DNA from: Eledone cirrhosa
Lineage: Eukaryota
Reading direction: 5' to 3'
NCBI GenBank assembly: GCA_964016885.1
Contig: OZ024741.1
Location: forward strand, 351,788,001-351,852,000
DNA: 64,000 nucleotides
The position numbers were made by a program, and so were the translations under genes. Shown here piece after piece: positions 3,125 through 38,486 of this stretch; the stretch's first letter is position 1; every line of letters starts with the position of its first letter. Under the pieces are notes generated by a model that did no database searches, had not been told where the DNA came from, and saw only the letters and a program-made list of their open reading frames with translations.

Positions 3125-3310
3125 CTTGCGTTTGAGAAAGGTAAGTTTTTCAACAACTGAATCAAGGGCTTTAGTAACCTCTCCCACTGTAACAGGTTTC
3201 TTCTGCAGGCACTTCTCCAAATCGTTACCAACAATTTGTAGGTGAGAAATCTCACGGTCAATGTTTTTCTGAGCAGAACGAAATTTCTTATTTAACAGTT
3301 CATAAGGAAC
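3125..3310 (-). CDS. MAEA: Internal coding exon (equivalent to exon 2) of E3 ubiquitin-protein transferase MAEA / macrophage erythroblast attacher
   Basis: Polypyrimidine tract and tttcag acceptor, gtaagt donor, 186 nt, phase 0/0. Translates [62 protein letters not shown], matching human [24 protein letters not shown]...VVEKLSVLKRK. Confidence 0.95.
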
Positions 3311-13758: not shown

Positions 13759-14126
13759 ATATACACACACACCAACACAAGCTTGATACAGTTGTGTACT
13801 GCTTTCGTCAACTCAACACTCTCTCAGTTCAGTTACTATAACAACAGCACAGGACAAAACAGACCTCTTGAAACCCATGCAGGTATGCATGGAGAGAAAC
13901 TGATATTTTAGTCATGCTAGTGATGATGATAATGATACTAGCACAGCAAGCTGCTGCTGCTGATGATGATTGTTGTTGGGATGGTGATAGTGAAAATGAT
14001 AATGGTGGGGCTGATGCTGATGGAATTGTGATGGTGAAAACTAACTTAATTCTGATTGGAAGGCATGTGTGTTGGTGGATGGGTGGTGGGTATAGGGTGT
14101 GAGTGTTTGGTGAGTTGTGGTCAGCA

Positions 14127-17100
14127 GTGGTTGGTGGTGGTTGCGGTTGTTGTTATTGGAGGTGGTGGTTGTAGTTGTTGTAGTTGGTGGCAGTGGTTGT
14201 TGTAGTTGGTGGCAGTGGTTGTTGTAGTTGGTGGTAATGGTTGTTGTAGTTGGTGGTAATGGTTGTGTAGTTGGTGGTAGTGGTTGTTGTAGTGGGTGGT
14301 AGTGGTTGTTGTAGTTGGTGGTAGTGGTTGTTGTAGTGGGTGGTAATGGTTGTTGTAGTGGGTGGTAGTGGTTGTTGTAGTTGGTGGTAGTGGTTGTTGT
14401 ATTTGGTGGTAGTGGTTGTTGTAGTTGGTGGTAGTGGTTGTTGTAGTTGGTGGTAATGGTTGTTGTAGTTGGTGGTAGTGGTTGTTGTAGTTGGTGGTAG
14501 TGGTTGTTGTAGTTGATGGTAGTGGTTGTTGTAGTTGGTGGTAGTGGTTGTTGTAGTTGGTGGTAGTGGTTGTTGTAGTTGGTGGTAGTGGTTGTTGTAG
14601 TTGGTGGTAGTGGTTGTTGTAGTTGGTGGCAGTGGTTGTTGTAGTTGGTGGTAGTGGTTGTTGTAGTTGGTGGTAGTGGTTGTTGTAGTTGGTGGTAGTG
14701 GTTGTTGTAGTTGGTGATAGTGGTTGTTGTAGTTGGTGGTAGTGGTTGTTGTAGTTGGTGGTAATGGTTGTTGTAGTTGGTGGTAGTGGTTGTTGTAGTT
14801 GGTGGTAGTGGTTGTTGTAGTTGGTGGTAGTGGTTGTTGTAGTTGGTGGCAGTGGTTGTTGTAGTTGGTGGTTGTTGTTTTGTAGTTGGTGGTTGTAGTT
14901 GTTGTAGTTGGTGATAGTGGTTGTTGTAGTTGGTGGTAGTGGTTGTTGTAGTTGGTGGTTGTAGTTGTTGTAGTTGGTGATAGTGGTTGTTGTAGTTGGT
15001 GGTAGTGGTTGTTGTAGTTGGTGGTAGTGGTTGTTGTAGTTGGTGGTGTTGGTTGTTGTTGTTGGTGGTAGTGGTTGTTGTAGTTGGTGGTGGTGGTTGT
15101 TGTTGTTGGTGGTAGTGGTTGTTGTAGTTGGTGGTAGTGGTTGTTGTAGTTGGTGGCAGTGGTTGTTGTAGTTGGTGGTAGTGGTTGTTGTAGTTGGTGG
15201 TGGTGGTTGTTGTTGTTGGTGGTAGTGGTTGTTGTAGTTGGTGGTGGTGGTTGTTGTTGTTGGTGGTAGTGGTTGTTGTAGTTGGTGGTGGTGGTTGTTG
15301 TTGTTGGTGGTAGTGGTTGTTGTAGTTGGTGGTAGTGGTTGTTGTAGTTGGTGGTAGTGGTTGTTGTAGTTGGTGGTAGTGGTTGTTGTAGTTGGTGGTG
15401 GTGGTTGTTGTTGTTGGTGGTAGTGGTTGTTGTAGTTGGTGGTAGTGGTTGTTGTAGTTGGTGGCAGTGGTTGTTGTAGTTGGTGGCAGTGGTTGTTGTA
15501 GTTGGTGGTAGTGGTTGTTGTAGTTGGTGGTAGTGGTTGTTGTAGTTGGTGGCAGTGGTTGTTGTAGTTGGTGGCAGTGGTTGTTGTAGTTGGTGGCAGT
15601 GGTTGTTGTAGTTGGTGGCAGTGGTTGTTGTAGTTGGTGGTAGTGGTTGTTGTAGTTGGTGGTAGTGGTTGTTGTAGTTGGTGGCAGTGGTTGTTGTAGT
15701 TGGTGGTAGTGGTTGTTGTTGTTGGTGGCAGTGGTTGTTGTAGTTGGTGGTGGTGGTTGTTGTAGTTGGTGGTAGTGGTTGTTGTAGTTGGTGGTAGTGG
15801 TTGTTGTAGTTGGTGGTAGTGGTTGTTGTAGTTGGTGGTAGTGGTTGTTGTAGTTGGTGGTGGTGGTTGTTGTTGTTGGTGGTAGTGGTTGTTGTAGTTG
15901 GTGGTAGTGGTTGTTGTAGTTGGTGGTAGTGGTTGTTGTAGTTGGTGGTAGTGGTTGTTGTAGTTGGTGGTGGTGGTTGTTGTTGTTGGTGGTAGTGGTT
16001 GTTGTAGTTGGTGGTAGTGGTTGTTGTAGTTGGTGGTGGTGGTTGTTGTTGTTGGTGGTAGTGGTTGTTGTAGTTGGTGGCAGTGGTTGTTGTAGTTGGT
16101 GGTAGTGGTTGTTGTAGTTGGTGGCAGTGGTTGTTGTAGTTGGTGGCAGTGGTTGTTGTAGTTGGTGGTAGTGGTTGTTGTAGTTGGTGGTAGTGGTTGT
16201 TGTAGTTGGTGGCAGTGGTTGTTGTAGTTGGTGGTAGTGGTTGTTGTAGTTGGTGGCAGTGGTTGTTGTAGTTGGTGGCAGTGGTTGTTGTAGTTGGTGG
16301 CAGTCGTTGTTGTAGTTGGTGGCAGTGGTTGTTGTAGTTGGTGGTAGTGGTTGTTGTAGTTGGTGGTAGTGGTTGTTGTAGTTGGTGGTAGTGGTTGTTG
16401 TAGTTGGTGGTAGTGGTTGTTGTAGTTGGTGGCAGTGGTTGTTGTAGTTGGTGGCAGTGGTTGTTGTAGTTGGTGGTGGTGGTTGTTGTTGTTGGTGGTA
16501 GTGGTTGTTGTAGTTGGTGGCAGTGGTTGTTGTAGTTGGTGGTGGTGGTTGTTGTAGTTGGTGGTAGTGGTTGTTGTAGTTGGTGGCAGTGGTTGTTGTT
16601 GTTGGTGGTAGTGGTTGTTGTAGTTGGTGGTAGTGGTTGTTGTAGTTGGTGGTAGTGGTTGTTGTTGTTGGTGGCAGTGGTTGTTGTAGTTGGTGGTGGT
16701 GGTTGTTGTAGTTGGTGGTAGTGGTTGTTGTAGTTGGTGGTAGTGGTTGTTGTAGTTGGTGGTGGTGGTTGTTGTTGTTGGTGGTAGTGGTTGTTGTAGT
16801 TGGTGGCAGTGGTTGTTGTAGTTGGTGGTAGTGGTTGTTGTAGTTGGTGGCAGTGGTTGTTGTAGTTGGTGGCAGTGGTTGTTGTAGTTGGTGGTAGTGG
16901 TTGTTGTAGTTGGTGGTAGTGGTTGTTGTAGTTGGTGGTAGTGGTTGTTGTAGTTGGTGGTAGTGGTTGTTGTAGTTGGTGGCAGTGGTTGTTGTAGTTG
17001 GTGGCAGTGGTTGTTGTAGTTGGTGGTGGTGGTTGTTGTTGTTGGTGGTAGTGGTTGTTGTAGTTGGTGGCAGTGGTTGTTGTAGTTGGTGGTGGTGGTT

Positions 17101-20100
17101 GTTGTAGTTGGTGGTAGTGGTTGTTGTAGTTGGTGGCAGTGGTTGTTGTTGTTGGTGGTGGTAGTGGTTGTTGTAGTTGGTGGTAGTGGTTGTTGTAGTT
17201 GGTGGTAGTGGTTGTTGTTGTTGGTGGCAGTGGTTGTTGTAGTTGGTGGTGGTGGTTGTTGTAGTTGGTGGTAGTGGTTGTTGTAGTTGGTGGCAGTGGT
17301 TGTTGTAGTTGGTGGTAGTGGTTGTTGTTGTTGGTGGCAGTGGTTGTTGTAGTTGGTGGTGGTGGTTGTTGTAGTTGGTGGCAGTGGTTGTTGTAGTTGG
17401 TGGTGGTGGTTGTTGTTGTTGGTGGTAGTGGTTGTTGTAGTTGGTGGCAGTGGTTGTTGTAGTTGGTGGTAGTGGTTGTTGTAGTTGGTGGCAGTGGTTG
17501 TTGTAGTTGGTGGTGGTGGTTGTTGTAGTTGGTGGTGGTGGTTGTTGTAGTTGGTGGTGGTGGTTGTTGTAGTTGGTGGTAGTGGTTGTTGTTGTTGGTG
17601 GCAGTGGTTGTTGTAGTTGGTGGTAGTGGTTGTTGTAGTTGGTGGCAGTGGTTGTTGTAGTTGGTGGTAGTGGTTGTTGTTGTTGGTGGCAGTGGTTGTT
17701 GTAGTTGGTGGTAGTGGTTGTTGTTGTTGGTGGCAGTGGTTGTTGTAGTTGGTGGTAGTGGTTGTTGTAGTTGGTGGCAGTGGTTGTTGTAGTTGGTGGT
17801 AGTGGTTGTTGTTGTTGGTGGCAGTGGTTGTTGTTGTTGGTGGCAGTGGTTGTTGTAGTTGGTGGTAGTGGTTGTTGTAGTTGGTGGTAGTGGTTGTTGT
17901 TGTTGGTGGCAGTGGTTGTTGTAGTTGGTGGTAGTGGTTGTTGTAGTTGGTGGTAGTGGTTGTTGTTGTTGGTGGCAGTGGTTGTTGTAGTTGGTGGTAG
18001 TGGTTGTTGTAGTTGGTGGTAGTGGTTGTTGTTGTTGGTGGTAGTGGTTGTTGTTGTCGGTGGTGGTGGTTGTAGTTGTCGGTGGTGGTGGTTGTAGTTG
18101 TCGGTGGCGGTGGTTGTTGTAGTTGGTGGTAGTGGTTGTTGTAGTTGGTGGTAGTGGTTGTTGTAGTTGGTGGTAGTGGTTGTTGTTGTTGGTGGTAGTG
18201 GTTGTTGTAGTTGGTGGTAGTGGTTGTTGTAGTTGGTGGTAGTGGTTGTTGTAGTTGGTGGTGGTGGTTGTTGTAGTTGGTGGTAGTGGTTGTTGTAGTT
18301 GGTGGTGGTGGTTGTTGTAGTTGGTGGTAGTGGTTGTTGTAGTTGGTGGTGGTGGTTGTTGTAGTTGGTGGTAGTGGTTGTTGTAGTTGGTGGTAGTGGT
18401 TGTTGTAGTTGGTGGTAGTGGTTGTTGTAGTTGGTGGTGGTGGTTGTTGTAGTTGGTGGTAGTGGTTGTTGTAGTTGGTGGTGGTGGTTGTTGTAGTTGG
18501 TGGTAGTGGTTGTTGTAGTTGGTGGTAGTGGTTGTAGTTGTCGGTGGTGGTGGTTGTTGTAGTTGGTGGTAGTGGTTGTTGTAGTTGGTGGTAGTGGTTG
18601 TTGTAGTTGTCGGTGGTAGTGGTTGTTGTAGTTGTCGGTGGTGGTGGTTGTTGTAGTTGGTGGTAGTGGTTGTTGTAGTTGGTGGTAGTTGTTGTTGTAG
18701 TTGGTGGTGGTGGTGGTTGTAGTTGTCGGTGGTGGTGGTTGTAGTTGTCGGTGGTGGTGGTTATTGTAGTTGGTGGTGGTGGTTGTTGTAGTCGGTGGTG
18801 GTGGTTGTTGTTGTTGGTGGTGGTGGTTGTAGTAGTTGGTGGTAGTGGTTGTAGTTGTCGGTGGTGGTGGTTGTTGTTGTTGGTGGTGTTGGTTGTAGTT
18901 GTCGGTGGTGGTGGTTGTTGTAGTTGGTGGCAGTTGTTGTTGTAGTTGGTGGTGGTGGTTGTTGTTGTTGTTGGTGGTAGTGGTTGTTGTTGTTGGTGGT
19001 AGTGGTTGTTGTAGTCGGTGGTGGTGGTTGTTGTTGTTGGTGGTAGTGGTTGTTGTAGTTGGTGGTGGTGGTTGTAGTTGTCGGTGGTGGTGGTTGTTGT
19101 AGTTGGTGGTAGTGGTTGTTGTAGTTGGTGGTGGTGGTTGTTGTAGTTGGTGGCAGTGGTTGTTGTAGTTGGTGGTGGTGGTTGTTGTAGTTGGTGGTAG
19201 TGGTTGTTGTTGTTGGTGGTAGTGGTTGTTGTTGTTGGTGGTGGTGGTTGTTGTAGTCGGTGGTGGTGGTTGTTGTTGTTGGTGGTGGTGGTTGTAGTTG
19301 TCGGTGGTGGTGGTTGTTGTAGTTGGTGGCAGTGGTTGTTGTAGTTGGTGGTGGTGGTTGTTGTAGTTGGTGGTGGTGGTTGTTGTTGTTGGTGGTAGTG
19401 GTTGTTGTTGTCGGTGGTGGTGGTTGTTGTTGTTGGTGGTAGTGGTTGTAGTTGTCGGTGGTGGTGGTTGTTGTAGTTGGTGGTAGTGGTTGTTGTAGTT
19501 GGTGGTAGTGGTTGTTGTAGTTGGTGGTGGTGGTTGTAGTTGTCGGTGGTGGTGGTTGTTGTAGTTGGTGGCAGTGGTTGTTGTAGTTGGTGGCAGTGGT
19601 TGTTGTAGTTGGTGGCAATGGTTGTTGTAGTTGGTGGTGGTGGTTGTTGTAGTTGGTGGTAGTGGTTGTTGTAGTTGGTGGTAGTGGTTGTTGTAGTTGG
19701 TGGCAGTGGTTGTTGTAGTTGGTGGTAGTGGTTGTTGTAGTTGGTGGTAGTGGTTGTTGTAGTTGGTGGTAGTGGTTGTTGTAGTTGGTGGTGGTTGTTG
19801 TTGTAGTTGGTGGTAGTGGTTGTTGTAGTTGGTGGTAGTGGTTGTTGTAGTCGGTGGTAGTGGTTGTTGTAGTTGGTGGCAGTGGTTGTAGTTGGTGGCA
19901 GTGGTTGTTGTAGTCGGTGGCAGTGGTTGTTGTAGTTGGTGGTAGTGGTTGTTGTAGTTGGTGGCAGTGGTTGTTGTAGTTGGTGGCAGTGGTTGTTGTA
20001 GTTGGTGGTAGTGGTTGTTGTTGTTGTTGGTGGTAGTGGTTGTTGTTGTTGGTGGTGGTGGTTGTTGTAGTTGGTGGCAGTGGTTGTTGTAGTTGGTGGC

Positions 20101-23100
20101 AGTGGTTGTTGTAGTTGGTGGCAGTGGTTGTTGTTGTTGGTGGTGGTGGTTGTTGTTGTTGGTGGTGGTGGTTGTAGTTGTCGGTGGTGGTGGTTGTTGT
20201 AGTTGGTGGCAGTGGTTGTTGTAGTTGGTGGTAGTGGTTGTTGTAGTTGGTGGTAGTGGTTGTTGTTGTTGGTGGTGGTGGTGGTTGTTGTTGTTGTTGT
20301 TGGTGGTGGTTGTAGTTGGTGGTAGTGGCTGTTGTAGTTGGTGGTAGTGGTTGTTGTAGTTGGTGGCAGTGGTTGTTGTAGTTGGTGGTAGTGGTTGTTG
20401 TAGTTGGTGGTAGTGGTTGTTGTAGTTGGTGGTAGTGGTTGTTGTAGTCGGTGGTGGTGGTTGTAGTTGTCGGTGGTGGTGGTTGTTGTAGTTGGTGGCA
20501 GTGGTTGTTGTAGTTGGTGGCAGTGGTTGTTGTAGTTGGTGGTGGTGGTTGTTGTAGTTGGTGGTAGTGGTTGTTGTAGTTGGTGGTGGTGGTTGTTGTA
20601 GTTGGTGGTAGTGGTTGTTGTAGTTGGTGGTAGTGGTTGTTGTAGTTGGTGGCAGTGGTTGTTGTAGTTGGTGGTAGTGGTTGTTGTAGTTGGTGGCAGT
20701 GGTTGTTGTAGTTGGTGGTAGTGGTTGTTGTTGTTGGTGGTGGTGGTTGCTGTTGTTGTTGGTGGTGGTTGTTGTTGTTGGTGGTAGTGGTTGTTGTAGT
20801 TGGTGGTGGTGGTTGTTGTTGTTGTTGGTGGTGGTGGTTGTTGTAGTTGGTGGTAGTGGTTGTTGTAGTTGGTGGTGGTGGTTGTTGTAGTTGGTGGTGG
20901 TGGTTGTTGTAGTTGGTGGTAGTGGTTGTTGTAGTTGGTGGTGGTGGTTGTTGTAGTTGGTGGTAGTGGTTGTTGTAGTTGGTGGTAGTGGTTGTAGTTG
21001 TAGGTGGTGGTGGTTGTTGTAGTTGGTGGTAGTGGTTGTTGTAGTTGGTGGTAGTGGTTGTTGTAGTCGGTGGTAGTGGTTGTTGTAGTTGTCGGTGGTG
21101 GTGGTTGTTGTAGTTGGTGGTAGTGGTTGTTGTAGTTGGTGGTAGTGGTTGTTGTAGTTGGTGGTAGTGGTTGTTGTAGTTGGTGGTAGTGGTTGTAGTT
21201 GGTGGTAGTGGTTGTTGTAGTTGGTGGTAGTGGTTGTTGTAGTTGGTGGTGGTGGTTGTTGTTGTTGTTGGTGGTGGTTGTTGTTGTTGTTGGTGGTAGT
21301 GGTTGTTGTAGTTGGTGGTGGTGGTTGTTGTTGTTGGTGGTGGTGGTTGTTGTTGTTGGTGGTGGTGGTTGTTGTAGTTGGTGGTAGTGGTTGTTGTAGT
21401 TGGTGGTGGTGGTTGTTGTAGTTGGTGGTAGTGGTTGTTGTTGTTGGTGGTGGTGGTTGTTGTAGTTGGTGGTAGTGGTTGTTGTTGTTGGTGGCAGTGG
21501 TTGTTGTAGTTGCTGGTAGTGGTTGTTGTAGTTGGTGGTGGTGGTTGTAGTTGTTGTAGTTGGTGGTAGTGGTTGTTGTAGTTGGTGGTAGTGGTTGTTG
21601 TAGTCGGTGGTAGTGGTTGTTGTAGTTGGTGGTAGTGGTTGTTGTAGTTGGTGGTAGTGGTTGTTGTAGTTGGTGGCAGTGGTTGTTGTAGTTGGTGGTA
21701 GTGGTTGTTGTAGTTGGTGGTAGTGGTTGTAGTTGGTGGTAGTGGTCGTTGTAGTTGGTGGTAGTGGTTGTTGTAGTTGGTGGCAGTGGTTGTTGTAGTC
21801 GGTGGCAGTGGTTGTTGTAGTTGGTGGTAGTGGTTGTTGTAGTTGGTGGTAGTGGTTGTTGTAGTTGGTGGTAGTGGTTGTTGTAGTTGGTGGTAGTGGT
21901 TGTTGTTGTTGGTGGTAGTGGTTGTTGTAGTTGGTGGTAGTGGTTGTTGTAGTTGGTGGTAGTGGTTGTTGTAGTTGGTGGTGGTGGTTGTTGTAGTTGG
22001 TGGTAGTGGTTGTTGTAGTTGGTGGTAGTGGTTGTTGTAGTTGGTGGTGGTGGTTGTTGTAGTTGGTGGTGGTGGTTGTTGTAGTTGGTGGTAGTGGTTG
22101 TTGTAGTTGGTGGTGGTGGTTGTTGTAGTTGGTGGTAGTGGTTGTTGTAGTTGGTGGTAGTGGTTGTTGTAGTTGGTGGTAGTGGTTGTTGTAGTTGGTG
22201 GTAGTGGTTGTTGTAGTTGGTGGTAGTGGTTGTTGTAGTTGATGGTAGTGGTTGTTGTAGTTGGTGGTAGTGGTTGTTGTAGTTGGTGGTGGTGGTTGTT
22301 GTAGTTGGTGGTGGTGGTTGTTGTAGTTGGTGGTAGTGGTTGTTGTAGTTGGTGGTGGTGGTTGTTGTAGTTGGTGGTAGTGGTTGTTGTAGTTGGTGGT
22401 GGTGGTTGTTGTAGTTGGTGGTAGTGGTTGTTGTAGTTGGTGGTAGTGGTTGTTGTAGTTGGTGGTAGTGGTTGTTGTAGTTGGTGGTGGTGGTTGTTGT
22501 AGTTGGTGGTAGTGGTTGTTGTAGTTGGTGGTAGTGGTTGTTGTAGTTGGTGGTGGTAGTTGTTGTAGTTGGTGGTAGTGGTTGTTGTAGTTGGTGGTAG
22601 TGGTTGTTGTAGTTGGTGGTGGTGGTTGTTGTAGTTGGTGGTTGTTGTAGTTGGTGGTAGTGGTTGTTGTAGTTGGTGGTAGTGGTTGTTGTAGTTGGTG
22701 GTGGTGGTTGTTGTAGTTGGTGGTAGTGGTTGTTGTAGTTGGTGGTGGTGGTTGTTGTAGTTGGTGGTAGTGGTTGTTGTAGTTGGTGGTAGTGGTTGTT
22801 GTAGTTGGTGGTGGTGGTTGTTGTAGTTGGTGGTAGTGGTTGTTGTAGTTGGTGGTAGTGGTTGTTGTTGTTGGTGGTGGTGGTTGTTGTAGTCGGTGGT
22901 GGTGGTTGTTGTAGTTGGTGGTAGTGGTTGTTGTAGTTGGTGGTAGTGGTTGTTGTAGTTGGTGGTAGTGGTTGTTGTAGTTGGTGGTAGTGGTTGTTGT
23001 AGTTGGTGGTAGTGGTTGTTGTAGTTGGTGGTAGTGGTTGTTGTAGTTGGTGGTGGTGGTTGTTGTAGTTGGTGGTAGTGGTTGTTGTAGTTGGTGGTAG

Positions 23101-23677
23101 TGGTTGTTGTAGTTGGTGGTAGTGGTTGTTGTAGTTGGTGGTAGTGGTTGTTGTAGTTGGTGGCGGTGGTTGTTGTAGTTGGTGGTAGTGGTTGTTGTTG
23201 TTGGTGGTGGCAGTGGTTGTTGTAGTTGGTGGTAGTGGTTGTTGTAGTCGGTGGTAGTGGTTGTAGTTGGTGGCAGTGGTTGTTGTAGTTGGTGGTAGTG
23301 GTTGTTGTAGTTGGTGGTAGTGGTTGTAGTTGGTGGTAGTGGTTGTAGTTGTCGGTGGTGGTGGTTGTAGTTGTCGGTGGTGGTGGTTGTTGTAGTTGGT
23401 GGCAGTGGTTGTTGTAGTTGGTGGTGGTGGTTGTTGTTGTAGTTGGTGGTAGTGGTTGTTGTAGTTGGTGGTAGTGGTTGTTGTAGTTGGTGGTAGTGGT
23501 TGTTGTAGTTGGTGGTAGTGGTTGTTGTAGTTGGTGGTAGTGGTTGTTGTAGTCGGTGGTAGTGGTTGTAGTTGTTGGTGGTAGTGGTTGTTGTTGTTGG
23601 TGGTGTTGGTTGTAGTTGTCGGTGGTGGTGGCTGTTGTAGTTGGTGGTAGTGGTTGTTGTAGTTGGTGGTAATAGTG
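14127..23677. repeat. ~9.5-kb tandem satellite of a 22-bp unit GGTGGTAGTGGTTGTTGTAGTT
   Basis: Continuous array of roughly 430 units (length/22). Variants are mostly a>c/g/t swaps and 3-bp indels. Confidence 0.97.
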
Positions 23678-26673: not shown

Positions 26674-27185
26674 TCCTAAAGCGTTTTTTTTGTTGTTGTG
26701 GGAGTTATTAATTTTTTTATTGGTTTTGTTGTTGTCGTCACTATTGTCATTGTTGTTGGTGTTGTTTTTTTGTTGTTTATGGTGTTGCTATTATTTGTAT
26801 CATTATTTTTTGTTGTTGTGTTGTGATGGTGTTGCTGATAGTGGTGGTGGTAGTGCTGTTTGTTTTGGCTATGCTTACTGTTATGGTGTTAGGGGTATTG
26901 GTGTTCACAATGGTAGACCTTGGCAGTGGCGGGAAATTAAGTTCATGAAGATATTGGTTAGTTTAACCCTAAAACATAATTAAATGTTCAACAAAATATG
27001 TTGGATAACAATAGAATAACAACAAACTTACAAGAGCAATCCGTAACATGTGTCAATAAAAGAACAAACAAAATAATAATGATGGTTTCTGATTTAGGCA
27101 CAAAGACAACAATTTGGGGCAGGAGATAGTTGATTAAATTGACCCCAGTGCGTTACTGGTACTACATTTTATCAACTCCATAAAG

Positions 27186-27933
27186 GGCACTGTCATGGTA
27201 TTAGCTGTCAGAAAGAAGGTGATGTCATTCGTCAACCTTCTCAATCGTTTATTTCCGTATCACTATTCCGTATCACCACGCGTTTATTTACGTTTATAAT
27301 TTTATTTATGGGTACCAAATAACCACGTAATTTTCGAGAGAAACGATAATATACAATCTTATTTAACATGTGCATTAAAAACTACACTAGCTGTTACAAT
27401 TGTAATTAACGTGTAAGAACTTAAATGAAAATATAGGTGGCCCTTAAAAGGGCCGGTATTGAACTTAAATTTGTTTTCTAATTTGATAACCATGACTTGT
27501 TTCAACACCGGCCCTTTTAAGGGCCACCTATATTTTCATTTAAGTTAACTCCGCTTACATCGATATGCTTTATTGTTATCTAAGCTTTTGCTTACACGTT
27601 AATTACAATTGTAACAGCTAGTGTAGTTTTTAATGCACATATTAAATAAGATTGTATATTATTGTTTCTCTCGAAAATTACGTTATTTGGTACCCATATT
27701 TTCTTTTTAATAAGTGTATCTCATCGTAAAATACAGCTAGTGTAGTTTTTAATGCACATTCGAAAATTACGTGGTTATTTGGTACCCATATTTTTATTTT
27801 AATAAGTGTATCTCATCGTAAACGTATCTCTTAGTGATACGGAAATAAACGATTGAGAAGGTTGACGAATGACGTCAGAGAGACGTCACCTTCTTCTACT
27901 TTCACTTCTGACAGCTAATACCATGACAGTGCC
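27186..27933. mobile_element. 748-bp foldback MITE, Merlin-like
   Basis: TIR GGCACTGTCATGGTATTAGCTGTCAGAA at both ends. 8-bp TSD ccataaag at 27178-27185 and 27934-27941. GGNRM terminus plus 8-bp TSD fits Merlin. Interior is largely palindromic. Confidence 0.85.
27505..27530 (+). promoter_or_regulatory. Histone 3'-UTR-type stem-loop motif (inverted twin at 27434-27459 on the minus strand)
   Basis: acacc-GGCCCT-TTTA-AGGGCC-ACCta has the 6-bp stem, UUUN loop and 3' ACC of the SLBP-binding consensus. Function is unproven. Confidence 0.55.
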
Positions 27934-28059
27934 CCATAAAGATGAAAGGCAAAGTTAACCTCGGCAGAATTTGGACTCAGAAAGTAAAGGACCCTAACTC
28001 TATGCCACAAAGCATGTTGTCCAACACACTTCCAATATTGCCAATACACTGCCAAATGC

Positions 28060-32699: not shown

Positions 32700-35600
32700 T
32701 CTAGCTACCCAACACCCCTCCCTCCCGCCCCCACGCACCACCATTGCTATTACGTGGACCAATCATAAGCCAGAGCCCCCACGCATCACCAGTATTATTA
32801 CTACGCGGACCAATCAGAAGCCAGAGGCCTATACTATCGCTTGCCTTTCGATATATGATGGATGGATGGATGGATGGATGGACTGCGGAATCCTGGAAAG
32901 TGGAGGAGAGAGAGAGAAAAATCTGGACGCTCAGCGGCAATGCCAAAGATAAAGACAAGTTCACCTCTTGGACGAGAATGCGAGCACTCCTCATTGTTTC
33001 GACCGCGGACGGCTAACATAACCCCATCGCCCCCCGCTCCCCACCGCCCCCAACCCCCAAACGCAATCCAAAACTTCAGAGTTGGTACCATAAATGTAGG
33101 CACCCTAAAGGGTCGCGCTAACGAGGTTGTAGAAATGCTTGAACGTAAGGAGGTCGATGTTTGTTGTATTCAAGAGACCAGGTGGAGGGGTGGGTCTGCT
33201 AGATTCATTGAGGGTAAAAAACGATGTTATAAGCTTTTCTGGGTGGGAAACGACGATGGGCTGGGTGGAGTAGGAATCATGGTAGCGGAAAAGTGGGCAG
33301 ATAAGATAATAGACGTAAATAGAGTGAACGACAGAATAATTAAAATACGACTTGTCCTCAATAGAACTACGGTGACAGTAATATCTGCGTACGCACCCCA
33401 ATCCGGACTGCCCGGCACTATAAAAGACAGATTCTATGAGACACTGATGCTAACTACCTCCCAAATATCCGACAGTGACTATATAATTATTGCAGGCGAC
33501 CTAAATGGTCACGTTGGACAACATTGTGACGGCTACAACGAAATCCATGGAGGCTATGGGTTTGGTACTAGAAATGAGGAAGGCTCCAGAATCCTGGAAT
33601 TCTGTGATGCAAATAACCTAACTATCTGTAACACTAACTTCAAAAAACGTGACAATCACCTGATCACCTATAGATCCGGGGAACACACAAGCCAGGTAGA
33701 TTATATCCTTACCAGAAGACGTGACAGAGTGTCTGTTGTAAACACCAAATCCCTCCCCCATGAAGAATGCACCTCCCAACATAGACTGATAATTAGCGAC
33801 CTCATAGTCAGGACGAGACGTACTCGACAGCAGAAGAGGACTATCCTCAGGAGAAAAATATGGAAGCTAAAGGACCCCACAGCCAGGAATAAATTTCAAA
33901 GCATATTACTTGATGCTTTCGACAGTAAGGAAGAACATTTAGAGTCGGACAATATAGAGGGAGAGTGAGAATTTCTGAAAGCAAACCTGCTGTTGGCGAC
34001 AGACGATGTCTGTGGCTGGAGCAGGCCTGTAGGCAGGAGGAGAGTAACATGGTGGTGGAACAGTAAGGTGGAGGGGTCAATTAAGGCCAAAAAGCAGGCT
34101 TGGAAAGTATGGCGGGATGGGGGAAGTAGAGAAGACTATCAAGTGGCCAGGAGGGAAGCTAGGAGACAAGTGTACTTAGCAAGAAGGGAAGCTGAGGAAA
34201 GAAAGTTCAAGCATGTTCTACAACACGATGACCAAAAACGTGAGGTGTTCAGGATTGCTAGGCAATGCGTCAAGGAAAACCGTGATATTGTCGGGGAGAA
34301 GTGTGTACTAAACGACGATGGCACACTTGCCATCACCGACGCTGATAAGAAGGTAGCTTGGAAGTGTCACTACGAAAGGCTACTAAATGAGGAGAATAAA
34401 TGGGAGAAAGACAGTCTCCCCCATATCGACCCAATAGAGGGACCAGCAGTGTTAGTCGAGGGGAGTATAATAAGTAAGGCAATCAAGGATATGAAGACGG
34501 GTAAGGCGGCTGGGCCTTCGGAAATAGTTGCTGAGATGCTGAAGGCATCTGGCACGGTGGGACACACCATGGTCACCCGCATAGTTAACCAAGTCGTACA
34601 GAATGGGGTTGTTCCGAAGGACTGGCATAGCAGCATCATCGTTAACTGTTATAAGGGTAAAGGAGACGCCCTAGATAGGAGTAACTATAGAGGCATTAAA
34701 TTAATCGACCAGGTCATGAAGGTCACGGAAAAAGTAATAGCGCAACTAATCAGAGAGAGAATCGACCTAGATGAAATGCAGTTCGGGTTTGTGTCAGGCA
34801 AAAGTACCACAGACGCTCTTTTCATAGTACGACAACTACAGGAGAAGTACCTAGCTAAAGGTAAACCCCTCTACTTAGCTTTTGTCGACTTGGAGAAAGC
34901 CTTTGACAGAGTCCCCCGCTCCATTATCTGGTGGGCTCTTAGAAAACTAGGCGTTGACGAATGGCTTGTGAGGGCTATACAAGCCATGTATAAAGAAACA
35001 GTCAGCAAGGTTAGAATTAACAACGAATATAGTGAAGAGTTTAGCGTAAAAGTTGGCGTCCATCAGGGCTCTGTTCTCAGCCCCCTACTATTTATTATTG
35101 CCCTTCAGGCTATAACAGAGGAGTTCAAGACAGGCTGCCCATGGGAACTCCTATACGCAGACGACCTGACACTCATAGCGGAATCAATGGCCGAGCTAGA
35201 GAAGAAATTCCAAACATGGAAGCACGGCCTAGAGTCAAAAGGACTTAAAATTAACCTGGCTAAGACCAAAGTTCTAGTTTGTAGGAAAGAAAACAAGGCG
35301 GCGGTCCCTTCTGGGAAATGGTCGTGCTCGGTGTGTAGGAAAGGCGTAGGTAGAAACTCCATTTTATGTCCTAAATGCAAAGTATGGGTGCATAAAAGAT
35401 GTAGTGGGATCACAGGTAAGCTAACTAAGAACATAGATTTTACATGTGGCCGGTGTTCTGGTGCAATAAGTAGCAGCAAGTGCCCACAAAATACTAGCTC
35501 TTTCAATTGCCCAGAGGGTTCTATAGAAATAGTGGACAGCTTCCGTTACCTGGGCGATAAAATCAGCAGTGGGGGAGGGTGCTCTGAAAGTACTGTAGCT

Positions 35601-36506
35601 AGAGTCAGAACTGGTTGGAAAAAGTTCAGAGAGCTTATACCACTATTAGCTGCTAAAGGGTTCTCCCTAAAAATGAAAGGCAGGTTGTACGATGCCTGCA
35701 TACGAACAGCAATGCTGCATGGCAGTGAGACCTGGGCATTGTGTGCAGAGGATATATGCAGACTAGAGAGGAACGAAGCTTGCATGCTCCGCTGGATGTG
35801 TAACAGTAATATACGTGAACGGCAAAGCATAAACAAACTAAGGAAAAAATTAGAGATAAGAGGGATCAGATGTTGTTTACTCGAGAGAAGGCTACGTTGG
35901 TATGGACACGTGATGCGCATGAAAGTCGATAGCTGTATAACAAAGTGCAGGGCAATAAAGATAGACGGTAGTCACGGAATAGGCAGACCTAGAAAAACCT
36001 GGGACGAGCTGATAAACTCCGACATCACACACTTACACCTCTCCAAGACAATGTCACTGGACCGAGACCTTTGGCGGTACTCAGTAACAGAGAAGACCCG
36101 CCTTACCTAAATATATAGTAAAACCTACTCCAACCAGTAGGCATCTCTAACAAAATACACCCCGTCCCACCACCACCACCCCCACCCCATCCACACCACC
36201 CCGTTCTATGTAAAGTTATGTTGGTGCCGCGCCATAGGCCGAAACAAATGAGATCGTGTAGGTGTCACGACAAAAAAACACACAGTCCACGCTGTAATGT
36301 GGCCGTGTAGGCAACACGGTAAAAACCTCCCAGACCCACACTGTAAATGTGGTTGGTGTTAGGAAGGGCATCCAACTGTAGAAAACCTGCCAGACAGTCC
36401 TATGCGAGCAAGACAATCACTCTTGCCTCAAGTGGGACTACCCCCGTCCAAACCCATGCAAGCGTGGAACACGGACGTTAAACGTTGATGATGATGATGA
36501 TGATGA
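32700..36506 (+). mobile_element. Near-full-length RTE-clade LINE (subfamily B, long 3' UTR, (GAT)n tail); 5' boundary uncertain and possibly ~32300
   Basis: APE endonuclease and RT lie in one frame. 3' UTR 36111-36485 is followed by (GAT)n. Confidence 0.93.
32940..36110 (+). pseudogene. RTE ORF: APE endonuclease + reverse transcriptase + PHD finger, one premature TGA at 33966-33968
   Basis: ORFs 32862-33968 (TINVGTL, CIQET, AYAPQ, GDLNGH, VDYIL, SQHRL) and 33993-36110 (NYRGIKL, QFGF, DLEKAFD, HQGSVLSP, YADD, FRYLG) are in the same frame. Confidence 0.95.
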
Positions 36507-36507
36507 T

Positions 36508-36691
36508 ATAGGAAAAAAGTATGACCCCGACGGCAGAGCTCAAGTCGTTTCGACTGCTATTTCTGGACTAGTCCAGAAATAGCCGTCGAAACGGCTTGAG
36601 CTCTGCTGTCGGGGTCATACTTTTTCCTATTTCCCACTCTACTACTCTAAGTAGTGAGTACTCTGGTGCGTTATGGTCCATCTGGTTCCTT
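36508..36691 (+). mobile_element. Loopless palindrome (36508-36630) carrying hammerhead 3' halves, plus a short tail
   Basis: ~61-bp arms centred on ggact|agtcc. Each arm has gtc-GAA-ACGRC-ttgagctct-GCYGT-C-ggggtc. CTGATGA is absent. Confidence 0.65.
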
Positions 36692-38486
36692 TAGGAGTAA
36701 CTATAGAGGCATTAAATTAATCGACCAGGTCATGAAGGTCACGGAAAAAGTAATAGCGCAACTAATCAGAGAGAGAATTGATCTAGAAGAAATGCAGTTC
36801 AGGTTTGTGTCAGGCAAAAGTACCACAGACGCTCTTTTCATTGTACGACAACTACAAGAGAAGTACCTAGCTAAAAGTAAACCCCTATACTTAGCTTTCA
36901 TCGACTTGGAGAAAGCCTTTGACAGAGTCCCCCGCTCCATTATCTGGTGGGCTCTTAGAAAACTAGGTGTTGAGGAATGGCTTGTGAGAGCTATACAAGC
37001 CATGTATAAAGAAACAGTCAGTAAGGTTAGGATTAACAACGAATATAGTGAAGAGTTTAGCGTAAAAGTTGGTGTTCATCAGGGCTCTGTTCTTAGCCCC
37101 CTACTATTTATTATTGCCCTTCAGGCTACAACAGTGGAGTTCAAGACCGGCTGCCCATGGGAACTCCTATACGCAGATGATCTAACGCTCATAGCTGAAT
37201 CAATGGCCGAGCTAGAGAAGAAATTCCAAACATTGAAGCACGGCCTAGAATCAAAAGGCCTTAAAATTAACCTGGCTAAGACTAAAGTTCTAGTTTGTAG
37301 GAAAGAAAATAAGGCACCGGTCCCTTCCGGGAAATGGCCATGCTCAGTGTGTAGGAAAGGCGTAGGTAGAAACTCCATTTTATGTCCCAAATGCAAAGTA
37401 TGGGTGCATAAAAGATGTAGTGGGATCACAGGTAAGCTAACTAAGAACATAGATTTTACATGTGGCCGGTGCTCTGGTGCAATAAGTAGCAGCAAGTGCC
37501 CACAAAATACTAGCTCTTTCAATTGCGCAGAGGGTTCTATAGAAATAGTGGACAGCTTCCGTTACCTGGGTGACAAAATCAGCAGTGGCGGAGGGTGCTC
37601 TGAAAATACAGTAACTAGAGTCAGAACTGGATGGAAAAAGTTCAGAGAGCTTATACCACTATTAGCCGCTAAAGGGTTCTCCCTAAAAATGAAAGGCAGG
37701 CTGTATGATGCCTGCATACGAACAGCAATGTTGCATGGCAGTGAGACCTGGGCATTGCGTGCAGAGGATATACGCAGACTAGAGAGGAACGAAGCTAGCA
37801 TGCTCCGCTGGATGTGTAATAGTAATATACACGAACGGCAAAGCATAAACGAACTAAGGGAAAAATTAGAAATAAGAGGGATCAGATGTTGTTTACTCGA
37901 GAGAAGGCTACGTTGGTATGGTCACGTGATGCGCATGAAAGACGACAGCTGTATAAAAAAGTGCAGAGCAATAAAGATAGACGGTAGCCATGGAGTAGGC
38001 AGACCCAGAAAAACCTGGGACGACCTGATAAATTCCGACCGCACACACTTACACCTCTCCAAGACAATGTCACTGGACCGAGATCTTTGGCGGCACTGAG
38101 TAATAGAGAAGACCCACCTTACCTAAATACAAAGTAAAACCTACTACAGTCAGTAGGCATCTCTAACAAAATACACCCCCCCCCCATCCACACCACCCCT
38201 TTCAATGTAAAGTTATGTTGGTGCCACAAAATCCAGGCCGAAACAAATGAGATCGTGTAGGTGTCACGACAAAAAAAAAACACACAGTCCACGCTGTAAT
38301 ATGGCCGTGTAGGCAACACGGTAAAAACCTCCCAGTCCCACACTGTAAATGTGGTTGGTGTTAGGAAGGGCATCCAGCTGTAGAAAATCCGCCAGACAGT
38401 GCTATGCGAGCAAGACAACCACTCTTGCCTCAAGTGGGAAAACTCCCGTCCAAACCCATGCAAGCGTGGAACATGGACGTTAGATG

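Follow-up and report, generated by a model that had tools for sequence, protein, structure and literature searches.

The window, i.e., the whole stretch of 64,000 nucleotides of the Eledone cirrhosa genome that was analysed here, contains a 748-bp non-autonomous DNA transposon with two histone-type stem-loops at its centre (Table 1). The element lies in intron 1, the first coding intron of the minus-strand gene MAEA. This placement, which the first-pass annotation had proposed, was confirmed by the second coding exon at 3125-3310 (minus strand) and by the first coding exon at G000:C2:352032795, about 218 kb past the element. Intron-less and broken MAEA-like matches, located at G000:C2:357601 kb and C1:270622 kb, are probably processed pseudogenes. 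The terminal inverted repeats (TIRs) of the element comprise 28 bp and begin with GGCACTG, and the 8-bp target-site duplication CCATAAAG is perfect. The element interrupts a host repeat, which we take to be SINE-like, and unbroken versions of this repeat across the insertion junction were found in 110 of the 466 sequences compared (best 89%). Elsewhere in the window, about 9 kb at 14000-23500 show an extreme G/T skew (GC skew 0.93-0.95) and are probably a simple tandem repeat, and two LINE-type copies are present at 32859-38096 on the plus strand, one with a 713-aa frame encoding a reverse transcriptase and a PHD-like finger.

Table 1. Features of the element, its insertion site and its host gene in window coordinates, and the Helitron hairpin loci elsewhere in the genome.
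Feature	Position	Strand	Basis or remark
MAEA second coding exon	3125..3310	-	element in preceding intron, ~241 kb
Host repeat interrupted by the element, limits approximate	27125..28000	+	unbroken versions across junction
Left target-site duplication CCATAAAG	27178..27185	+	letters of window
Non-autonomous Merlin (IS1595-type) foldback element / MITE, 748 bp	27186..27933	.	TIRs and nested inverted arms; relatives with a related TIR variant encode DDE_Tnp_IS1595
Left terminal inverted repeat, starts GG	27186..27213	+	inverted-repeat pair I5
Inverted copy of H4-derived segment, left arm	27308..27461	-	alignment to donor H4
Histone 3' stem-loop, left arm; copy in MAEA pre-mRNA sense	27439..27454	-	Rfam RF00032 39.1 bits
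Spacer, Merlin subterminal modules, also present 3' of transposase stop	27464..27500	.	repeat comparison
H4-derived segment (3' end and flank), with deletions and internal duplication	27503..27834	+	alignment to L056 1726-2066
Histone 3' stem-loop, right arm; 5' flank ACACC as in donor H4, 3' ACC	27510..27525	+	Rfam RF00032 42.3 bits
Downstream AAGT-type box, native position, putative histone downstream element	27541..27546	+	identical in donor H4
Right terminal inverted repeat	27906..27933	-	inverted-repeat pair I5
Right target-site duplication CCATAAAG	27934..27941	+	letters of window
Helitron hairpin loci	L226, L229, L242, L252, L426-L432, L436-L439, L442, L444, L458, L462		e.g. G000:C4:180711-180721 kb

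The inverted pair of stem-loops is present as first described: the motif GGCCCT-TTTA-AGGGCC-ACC is read at 27510-27528 on the plus strand, an identical 19-mer is read at 27454-27436 on the minus strand, both face outward, and the stems are separated by 55 nt, of which 37 nt (27464-27500) form the non-palindromic spacer (inverted-repeat pair I3). With the Rfam model Histone3 (RF00032, gathering cut-off 34 bits) the two copies scored above the cut-off (27505-27550, plus, with 42.3 bits; 27415-27459, minus, with 39.1 bits), and they are the only gathering-level Rfam matches in the 64 kb. The absence of a histone coding sequence nearby also holds as judged by Histone3 hairpins, since no third match occurs in the window. 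Matches to Rfam miRNA and sRNA models within the element stay below the cut-offs of these models and were rejected as a generic resemblance to long hairpins. The exact 19-mer is found 608 times in the genome while the reversed control is found 0 times, and the window hairpin is therefore not a product of chance. The first-pass annotation saw no downstream element, but the 30 nt past the stem match the donor H4 gene described below and carry an AAGT-type box. Sequence comparison shows that both are genuine histone 3' stem-loops and that they derive, by copying, from an H4 gene of the host.

A search for the MITE family returned 841 candidate relatives, of which 40 were scored. The exact 19-mer often occurs as outward pairs with a spacing of up to 2.6 kb, and the long pairs flank an open reading frame of ~300 aa encoding DDE_Tnp_IS1595. 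In autonomous partners the transposase domain PF12762 was matched with 71 and 66 bits, with the blocks EIDE, ISDLW and HIECLW. Intact transposase reading frames carry a related TIR variant, and with the exact TIR of the window (32 matches) only transposase fragments were seen (L135). A target-site duplication with at most one mismatch accompanies 32 of the 64 elements with paired TIRs, the remainder being rearranged, duplicated or mispaired. Merlin elements are defined, in the accessible text of a survey of the superfamily, by TIRs with terminal 5'-GG, target-site duplications of 8-9 bp, an IS1595 transposase and internal repeats (PMC8101967). With its terminal GG, 8-bp duplications and DDE_Tnp_IS1595 transposase the family thus falls within this definition. 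Inverted transposase pairs, i.e., whole-element foldbacks, were observed at L031, L148, L184, L192 and L215 and stem from two Merlin lineages. Many MITE copies at G000:C18 4.9-12.6 Mb and on C28, C370, C1124 and C1636 have identical flanks and therefore multiplied inside a larger duplicated unit and not by transposition. Divergent, uninterrupted Merlin-like reading frames, each found once in the sample (L147, 332 aa; L151, 350 aa; G000:C9:53560 kb, a 401-aa frame), are possibly domesticated.

The hairpin is restricted to one lineage within this sample: five other Merlin lineages, represented by 35 reading frames, are without it, and among 20 loci searched with Rfam the sole match came from the lineage of the window. 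Homologs also exist in Octopus bimaculoides and O. sinensis, the four best ones reaching 73-85%. A metagenome scan gave 2 loci among 51 candidates, and in the locus L180 (59% identity) no hairpin was seen by eye in 185 nt, an AATAAA lying 33 nt 3' of the stop codon. A scan of 2.9 million viral contigs gave 7 matches. The Merlin family and the histone locus are both present in contigs X1-X4, which come from one study and whose kind is unrecorded.

The donor of the captured DNA is an H4 gene that forms an intact pair with a divergently oriented H3 gene (L056, G000:C7:67458 kb). Positions 318-649 of the MITE align to L056 1726-2066, covering the hairpin, 7 nt 5' of the stem and ~330 nt 3' of it, so that the capture first proposed from the window alone is substantiated by an identifiable intact gene with ~330 bp of colinear homology. 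In the far flank, the window element and the donor differ by 4 substitutions in 176 alignment columns. The longest 5' reach is found in one arm of the MITE L134 (G000:C4:322979.8-322980.8 kb), which contains the last H4 codons and the whole paralog-specific 3' UTR. A non-autonomous sub-lineage (L156-L174) with truncated transposase carries up to ~570 bp of H4 flank and two more distant pieces, whose position or orientation differs in the present host locus, and has no hairpin. The hairpin and the 25-45 nt that follow it recur in other H4 paralogs, and the 20 kb surrounding the donor yielded neither a TIR nor a transposase of the family; the direction of transfer is therefore from host to transposon. 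As these 20 kb are free of both, the idea that the H3-H4 pair itself sits inside a Merlin was also rejected, as was a histone origin of the transposase promoter, for which there is no match outside the cassette. Substitutions between host and transposon flanks amount to 1.5-6.6%, and the capture appears to be a fairly recent event. Judged by these alignments, the origin of the window hairpins is solved as a traceable capture of an H4 gene end. At L131, L132, L133, L249 and L353, Merlin elements or TIRs lie only a few kb from histone genes, in one case ~105 nt past an H3 stop codon, which might reflect a preference or just a high copy number.

Native histone genes of the same genome served for comparison. 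Among 44 distinct native histone 3' ends, an AAGT-type box lies 16-17 nt 3' of the stem in 29, is placed elsewhere in 7 and is absent by pattern in 8; the downstream element of E. cirrhosa is thus seen as a short AAGT/ATTGT-type box and not as a purine-rich run. The box stands in its native place in both MITE and autonomous Merlin copies, whose downstream profile scores of 20.6 and 19.5 fall within the native range of -0.7 to 23, the donor being part of the training set. The stop codon and the stem are 19-67 nt apart in 43 of the 44 native genes, and an A is present within the last 3 nt before the stem in all 44. In the accessible parts of two studies, two A's in the 5' flank are cited as needed for full SLBP affinity (PMC10388802) and the stop codon is followed by the processing signal after 25-60 nt (bioRxiv 10.64898/2026.10.14.759114). 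An SLBP gene is present in the genome, at G000:C13:30099 kb. The Rfam search for U7 snRNA gave four sub-threshold matches, and the best candidate (29.7 bits) was rejected as showing no obvious pairing with the AAGT box by eye.

The proposal that the stem-loop follows the transposase stop codon was borne out in autonomous relatives, in which the hairpin stands 3' of the stop in sense orientation in 25 of 28. This set of 28 is independent of the 19-mer search, 27 being from the transposase list, from which likely members of the lineage were chosen, and one being separate. Within 700 nt past the stop, 36 of 41 transposase C-termini have the hairpin in sense, most commonly at a spacing of 137 nt, which is above 43 of the 44 native values and above the 25-60 nt cited. 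The MITE itself has no reading frame. The retained piece begins at the first G of the stem and extends over 64 nt in the 3' arm, i.e., the hairpin and ~48 nt, and over 46 nt, antisense, in the 5' arm. Autonomous Merlin copies lie, for example, at G000:C3:15913-15915 kb. Rfam scores of the hairpins in the autonomous copy L145 are 34.0 bits (3' arm) and 37.0 bits. Autonomous copies have AATTT before the stem and no A in the last 3 nt, and the MITE keeps the ACACC of the donor. The only change in the loop is C to A and lies inside native variation. An AATAAA is located 71 nt past the transposase stop and is weak evidence, because 34% of shuffles yield one. In the stretch from the 5' hairpin to the ATG there are CCAAT and TATA-like boxes, and the transposase transcript is therefore likely to be without the antisense copy. 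In an unrooted tree four transposase copies form a hairpin-less sister clade (support 100/100), and the hairpin-bearing clade holds most copies (38 of 43 rows in a sample that was partly picked by the hairpin).

The two arrangements differ in predicted RNA structure. The MITE RNA was predicted to fold into one long helix (MFE -409 kcal/mol, z -38.6), with a hairpin probability of 0.000 whichever strand is read, also in nascent fragments, and the hairpin would be freed only by a transcription start inside the 37-nt spacer. It had been suggested that the palindromic MITE places an SLBP site on whichever strand is transcribed. The folding does not support this: whichever strand is read, transcription reaches the antisense copy before the sense copy, and the predicted pairing of the two would keep the hairpin from forming in MITE RNA; the two-copy symmetry itself is explained by the foldback build of the family. 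In the 3' UTRs of autonomous elements and of H4, the pair probability of the hairpin is predicted to be 0.85-1.0.

As to conservation across copies, the hairpin is indeed perfect in 46 of the 59 arms found in the best 30 loci (in both arms in 17 loci), but the cassette is no better kept than the inert captured flank: the two sub-lineages differ in 2 of 64 cassette columns, compared with 2.5-3.8% in the inert flank and 10-17% in the termini. The captured DNA apparently spread between sub-lineages after these had diverged. A 1-nt indel between the sub-lineages makes the per-position decay count uninformative past position 36. The conservation of the cassette is, on these counts, no evidence of selection, and because the capture is so recent, sequence conservation has little power here.

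The window hairpins were captured from H4 into a Merlin element, and we consider it probable, with reasonable though not high confidence, that they are passengers which, as predicted, mask each other. Within the MITE, the two inverted hairpins most probably have no activity. One Merlin lineage took up at least ~660 bp, probably ~1 kb, of an H4 end comprising the last codons, the 3' UTR, the stem-loop, the downstream box and flank, likely either through template switching during excision-gap repair or through an aberrant transposition event next to a histone cluster. We infer an uptake near a histone cluster because Merlin copies adjoin histone genes at L131-L133. Copying from arm to arm together with internal deletion, for which the structure is seen directly and of which the order is our reconstruction (compare the inverted transposase pairs), would have yielded autonomous elements with the hairpin and 30-48 nt in both arms, MITEs with the hairpin and ~330 nt in both arms, and the flank-only sub-lineage. 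Read-through RNA of the MITE would then form one long double helix burying both hairpins, so that MAEA pre-mRNA is predicted not to be cut at the MITE. If transcription of an autonomous element began past the 5' hairpin but ahead of the ATG, the 3' hairpin of the RNA would be free to fold, and the histone machinery could cut this RNA as a side effect, with no sign of selection keeping the hairpin. Against the passenger reading, the autonomous piece, from the first G of the stem to 48 nt past the stem, is close to a minimal processing unit; it stands in sense behind the stop in 25 of 28 copies; the clade with the hairpin is the most numerous in the sample; the single loop change stays inside native variation; the folding is an equilibrium prediction and SLBP could bind co-transcriptionally; and an equivalent layout is found independently in Helitrons.

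The main alternative, which we regard as rather unlikely while taking it seriously, is a co-option in which autonomous Merlin elements and some Helitrons use the stem-loop and box as the 3' end of the transposase mRNA, the MITE copies being by-products. Such messages would be poly(A)-less, SLBP-bound and timed to S-phase or to the oocyte, which would suit elements that gain copies by moving during replication. The sense hairpin past the stop in Merlin, the CCAAT/TATA-like boxes before the Merlin ATG and the presence of an SLBP gene are in favour of it. Against it stand, for Merlin, the loss of the 5' adenines, the spacing of 137 nt as compared with 19-67 nt, the AATAAA, weak as it is, and the hairpin-less sister clade. 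The statement of the first-pass annotation that the transposon family may use the histone 3' signal thus finds the evidence leaning against it, through this sister clade, the flank-like conservation and the lack of a 5' A in autonomous copies.

Further evidence on co-option comes from Helitrons. A search with hairpin variants gave 104 matches, and most of the first 30 loci are Helitrons and neither histone genes nor Merlin elements. A histone-type stem-loop was observed in sense orientation 184-580 nt 3' of the helicase in four Helitron helicase clades. A shared block of GAACG, hairpin and ATTGTT was matched 157 times with 0 matches for the control. A Rep domain (Helitron_like_N) and a PIF1 helicase lie 5' of the hairpin at L458 and L462, and the other clades were assigned by helicase match only. 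The stem is invariant and the spacers vary, the GAACG upstream and the ATTGTT downstream recur, and the rest is unalignable; none of the 44 native histone 3' ends was found to be the donor. Together, the invariant stem, the variable spacers and the lack of a donor among these ends suggest an older, constrained module. This look of constraint and the A-rich 5' flanks, which the Helitron hairpins keep, would fit the use of the hairpin in mRNA 3'-end formation. The counter-evidence is that the hairpin was found in 0 of 56 Helitrons picked by helicase (65 loci examined, 56 with C-terminus) and in 5 of 29 loci (with the query counted) retrieved by means of the Y-type helicase, that the hairpins score 27-33 bits where listed, below the Rfam cut-off, with one family unlisted at E 0.05, and that the downstream profile is poor (-2 to -10), one family having just 2-3 nt between stem and box. 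Covariation was not seen in the Helitron hairpin and is uninformative because the stem is invariant. In a quick version of the Helitron tree, 3-5 gains or losses of the hairpin are required. That Merlin and Helitron, two unrelated classes of DNA transposons, independently recruited the histone 3'-end pathway, with transposase mRNAs bound by SLBP and timed to S-phase or the oocyte, is accordingly put forward only as a doubtful, tentative proposal.

Some Helitron copies have two to four tandem units of the hairpin block. Arrays of degenerate ~34-bp hairpin units that end in a near-perfect hairpin were seen at L430, L433 and L434, with no helicase end in the stretch examined. A lone hairpin at L435 2532 (G000:C2:325023 kb) is preceded by a motif of the Helitron type and followed by a box resembling that of histone genes; neither a helicase nor any other convincing reading frame is nearby. 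Helitron copies ~100 kb apart on C19, C20 and C27 share flanks and belong to a larger duplicated unit.

A role at the level of DNA or in camouflage, with the hairpin acting in the pairing of ends, as a template-switch hairpin, or as host-essential sequence spared by small-RNA silencing, appears improbable. It would account for the position of the hairpin among repeated subterminal modules in both arms, for the tandem degenerate 34-bp hairpin units of some Helitron copies, and for a deletion edge exactly at the stem base, as if hairpins set the breakpoints. However, hairpin-less elements (L156-L174, L190, L207) transposed with clean 8-bp duplications, and the overlap of the window's copy with mature H4 mRNA is only ~21 nt. 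That a palindrome of the transposon came to resemble the histone hairpin by chance or convergence has next to no probability and is refuted for the Merlin lineage since, for all the palindromes of MITEs and the spurious miRNA-type Rfam matches in the element, the ~330 bp of homology to one H4 locus are colinear and reach into coding sequence in L134. Such a resemblance may still apply to the Helitron motif, for which no donor was found among the 44 native ends.

The metazoan histone mRNA 3' end (RF00032; SLBP, U7 snRNP) and the element share the 6-bp stem, the UUUA loop, the 3' ACC, the downstream box and H4 descent. The MITE differs in that no histone reading frame lies upstream and that the hairpin is predicted to be masked by its antisense twin, and the autonomous Merlin hairpin in that it is placed 137 nt behind a transposase and is T-rich on its 5' side, as a putative signal. 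With Merlin elements as described in the accessible survey text (PMC8101967) the lineage has in common the terminal GG, the 8-bp target-site duplication, DDE_Tnp_IS1595 and internal repeats, but it carries host DNA with an RNA-processing signal in both arms.

Host gene fragments are taken up and amplified by Pack-MULE and Pack-TIR elements and in Helitron capture, and foldback elements have long modular inverted arms. The Merlin fragment is distinct from these in being a 3'-processing cassette, present in both arms and standing in sense behind the reading frame. Another meeting of the histone-processing machinery with mobile elements is the repression of HERV1/LTR12 elements by U7 snRNA via HDE-like motifs (PMC11417402); there, the abstract describes transcriptional repression of retroelements and no stem-loop, whereas here stem-loop and box are found in DNA transposons. 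In the openly accessible literature searched, no description of a histone stem-loop arrangement in transposons was found: the main text of the Merlin survey (PMC8101967) has neither 'histone' nor 'stem-loop', the main text of the O. vulgaris repeat paper has no 'histone', and the accessible text of a survey of histone 3' processing has no mention of 'transpos' (bioRxiv 10.64898/2026.10.14.759114). Against this literature, the new point at the level of sequence is that an entire histone 3'-processing cassette stands behind a transposase gene; Helitrons in this genome offer a parallel.

The Merlin case is exceptionally clear-cut, as a single assembly contains the donor gene, the longest capture, the trimmed derivatives and the relatives without the hairpin. 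Histone mRNAs are, in the accessible part of one study, the only known non-polyadenylated cellular mRNAs, with no expressed non-histone SLBP target in HeLa cells (PMC4604434). If the transposase message does use the histone hairpin, transposition would be tied to DNA replication by a borrowed host timer, such messages would escape poly(A)-based surveys, and they would be non-histone clients of a pathway supposed to serve histones only. Even as passengers, the copies inflate Rfam histone annotations, and hundreds of hairpins with downstream boxes in a genome with long introns could be cryptic cleavage sites or SLBP decoys unless they are masked.
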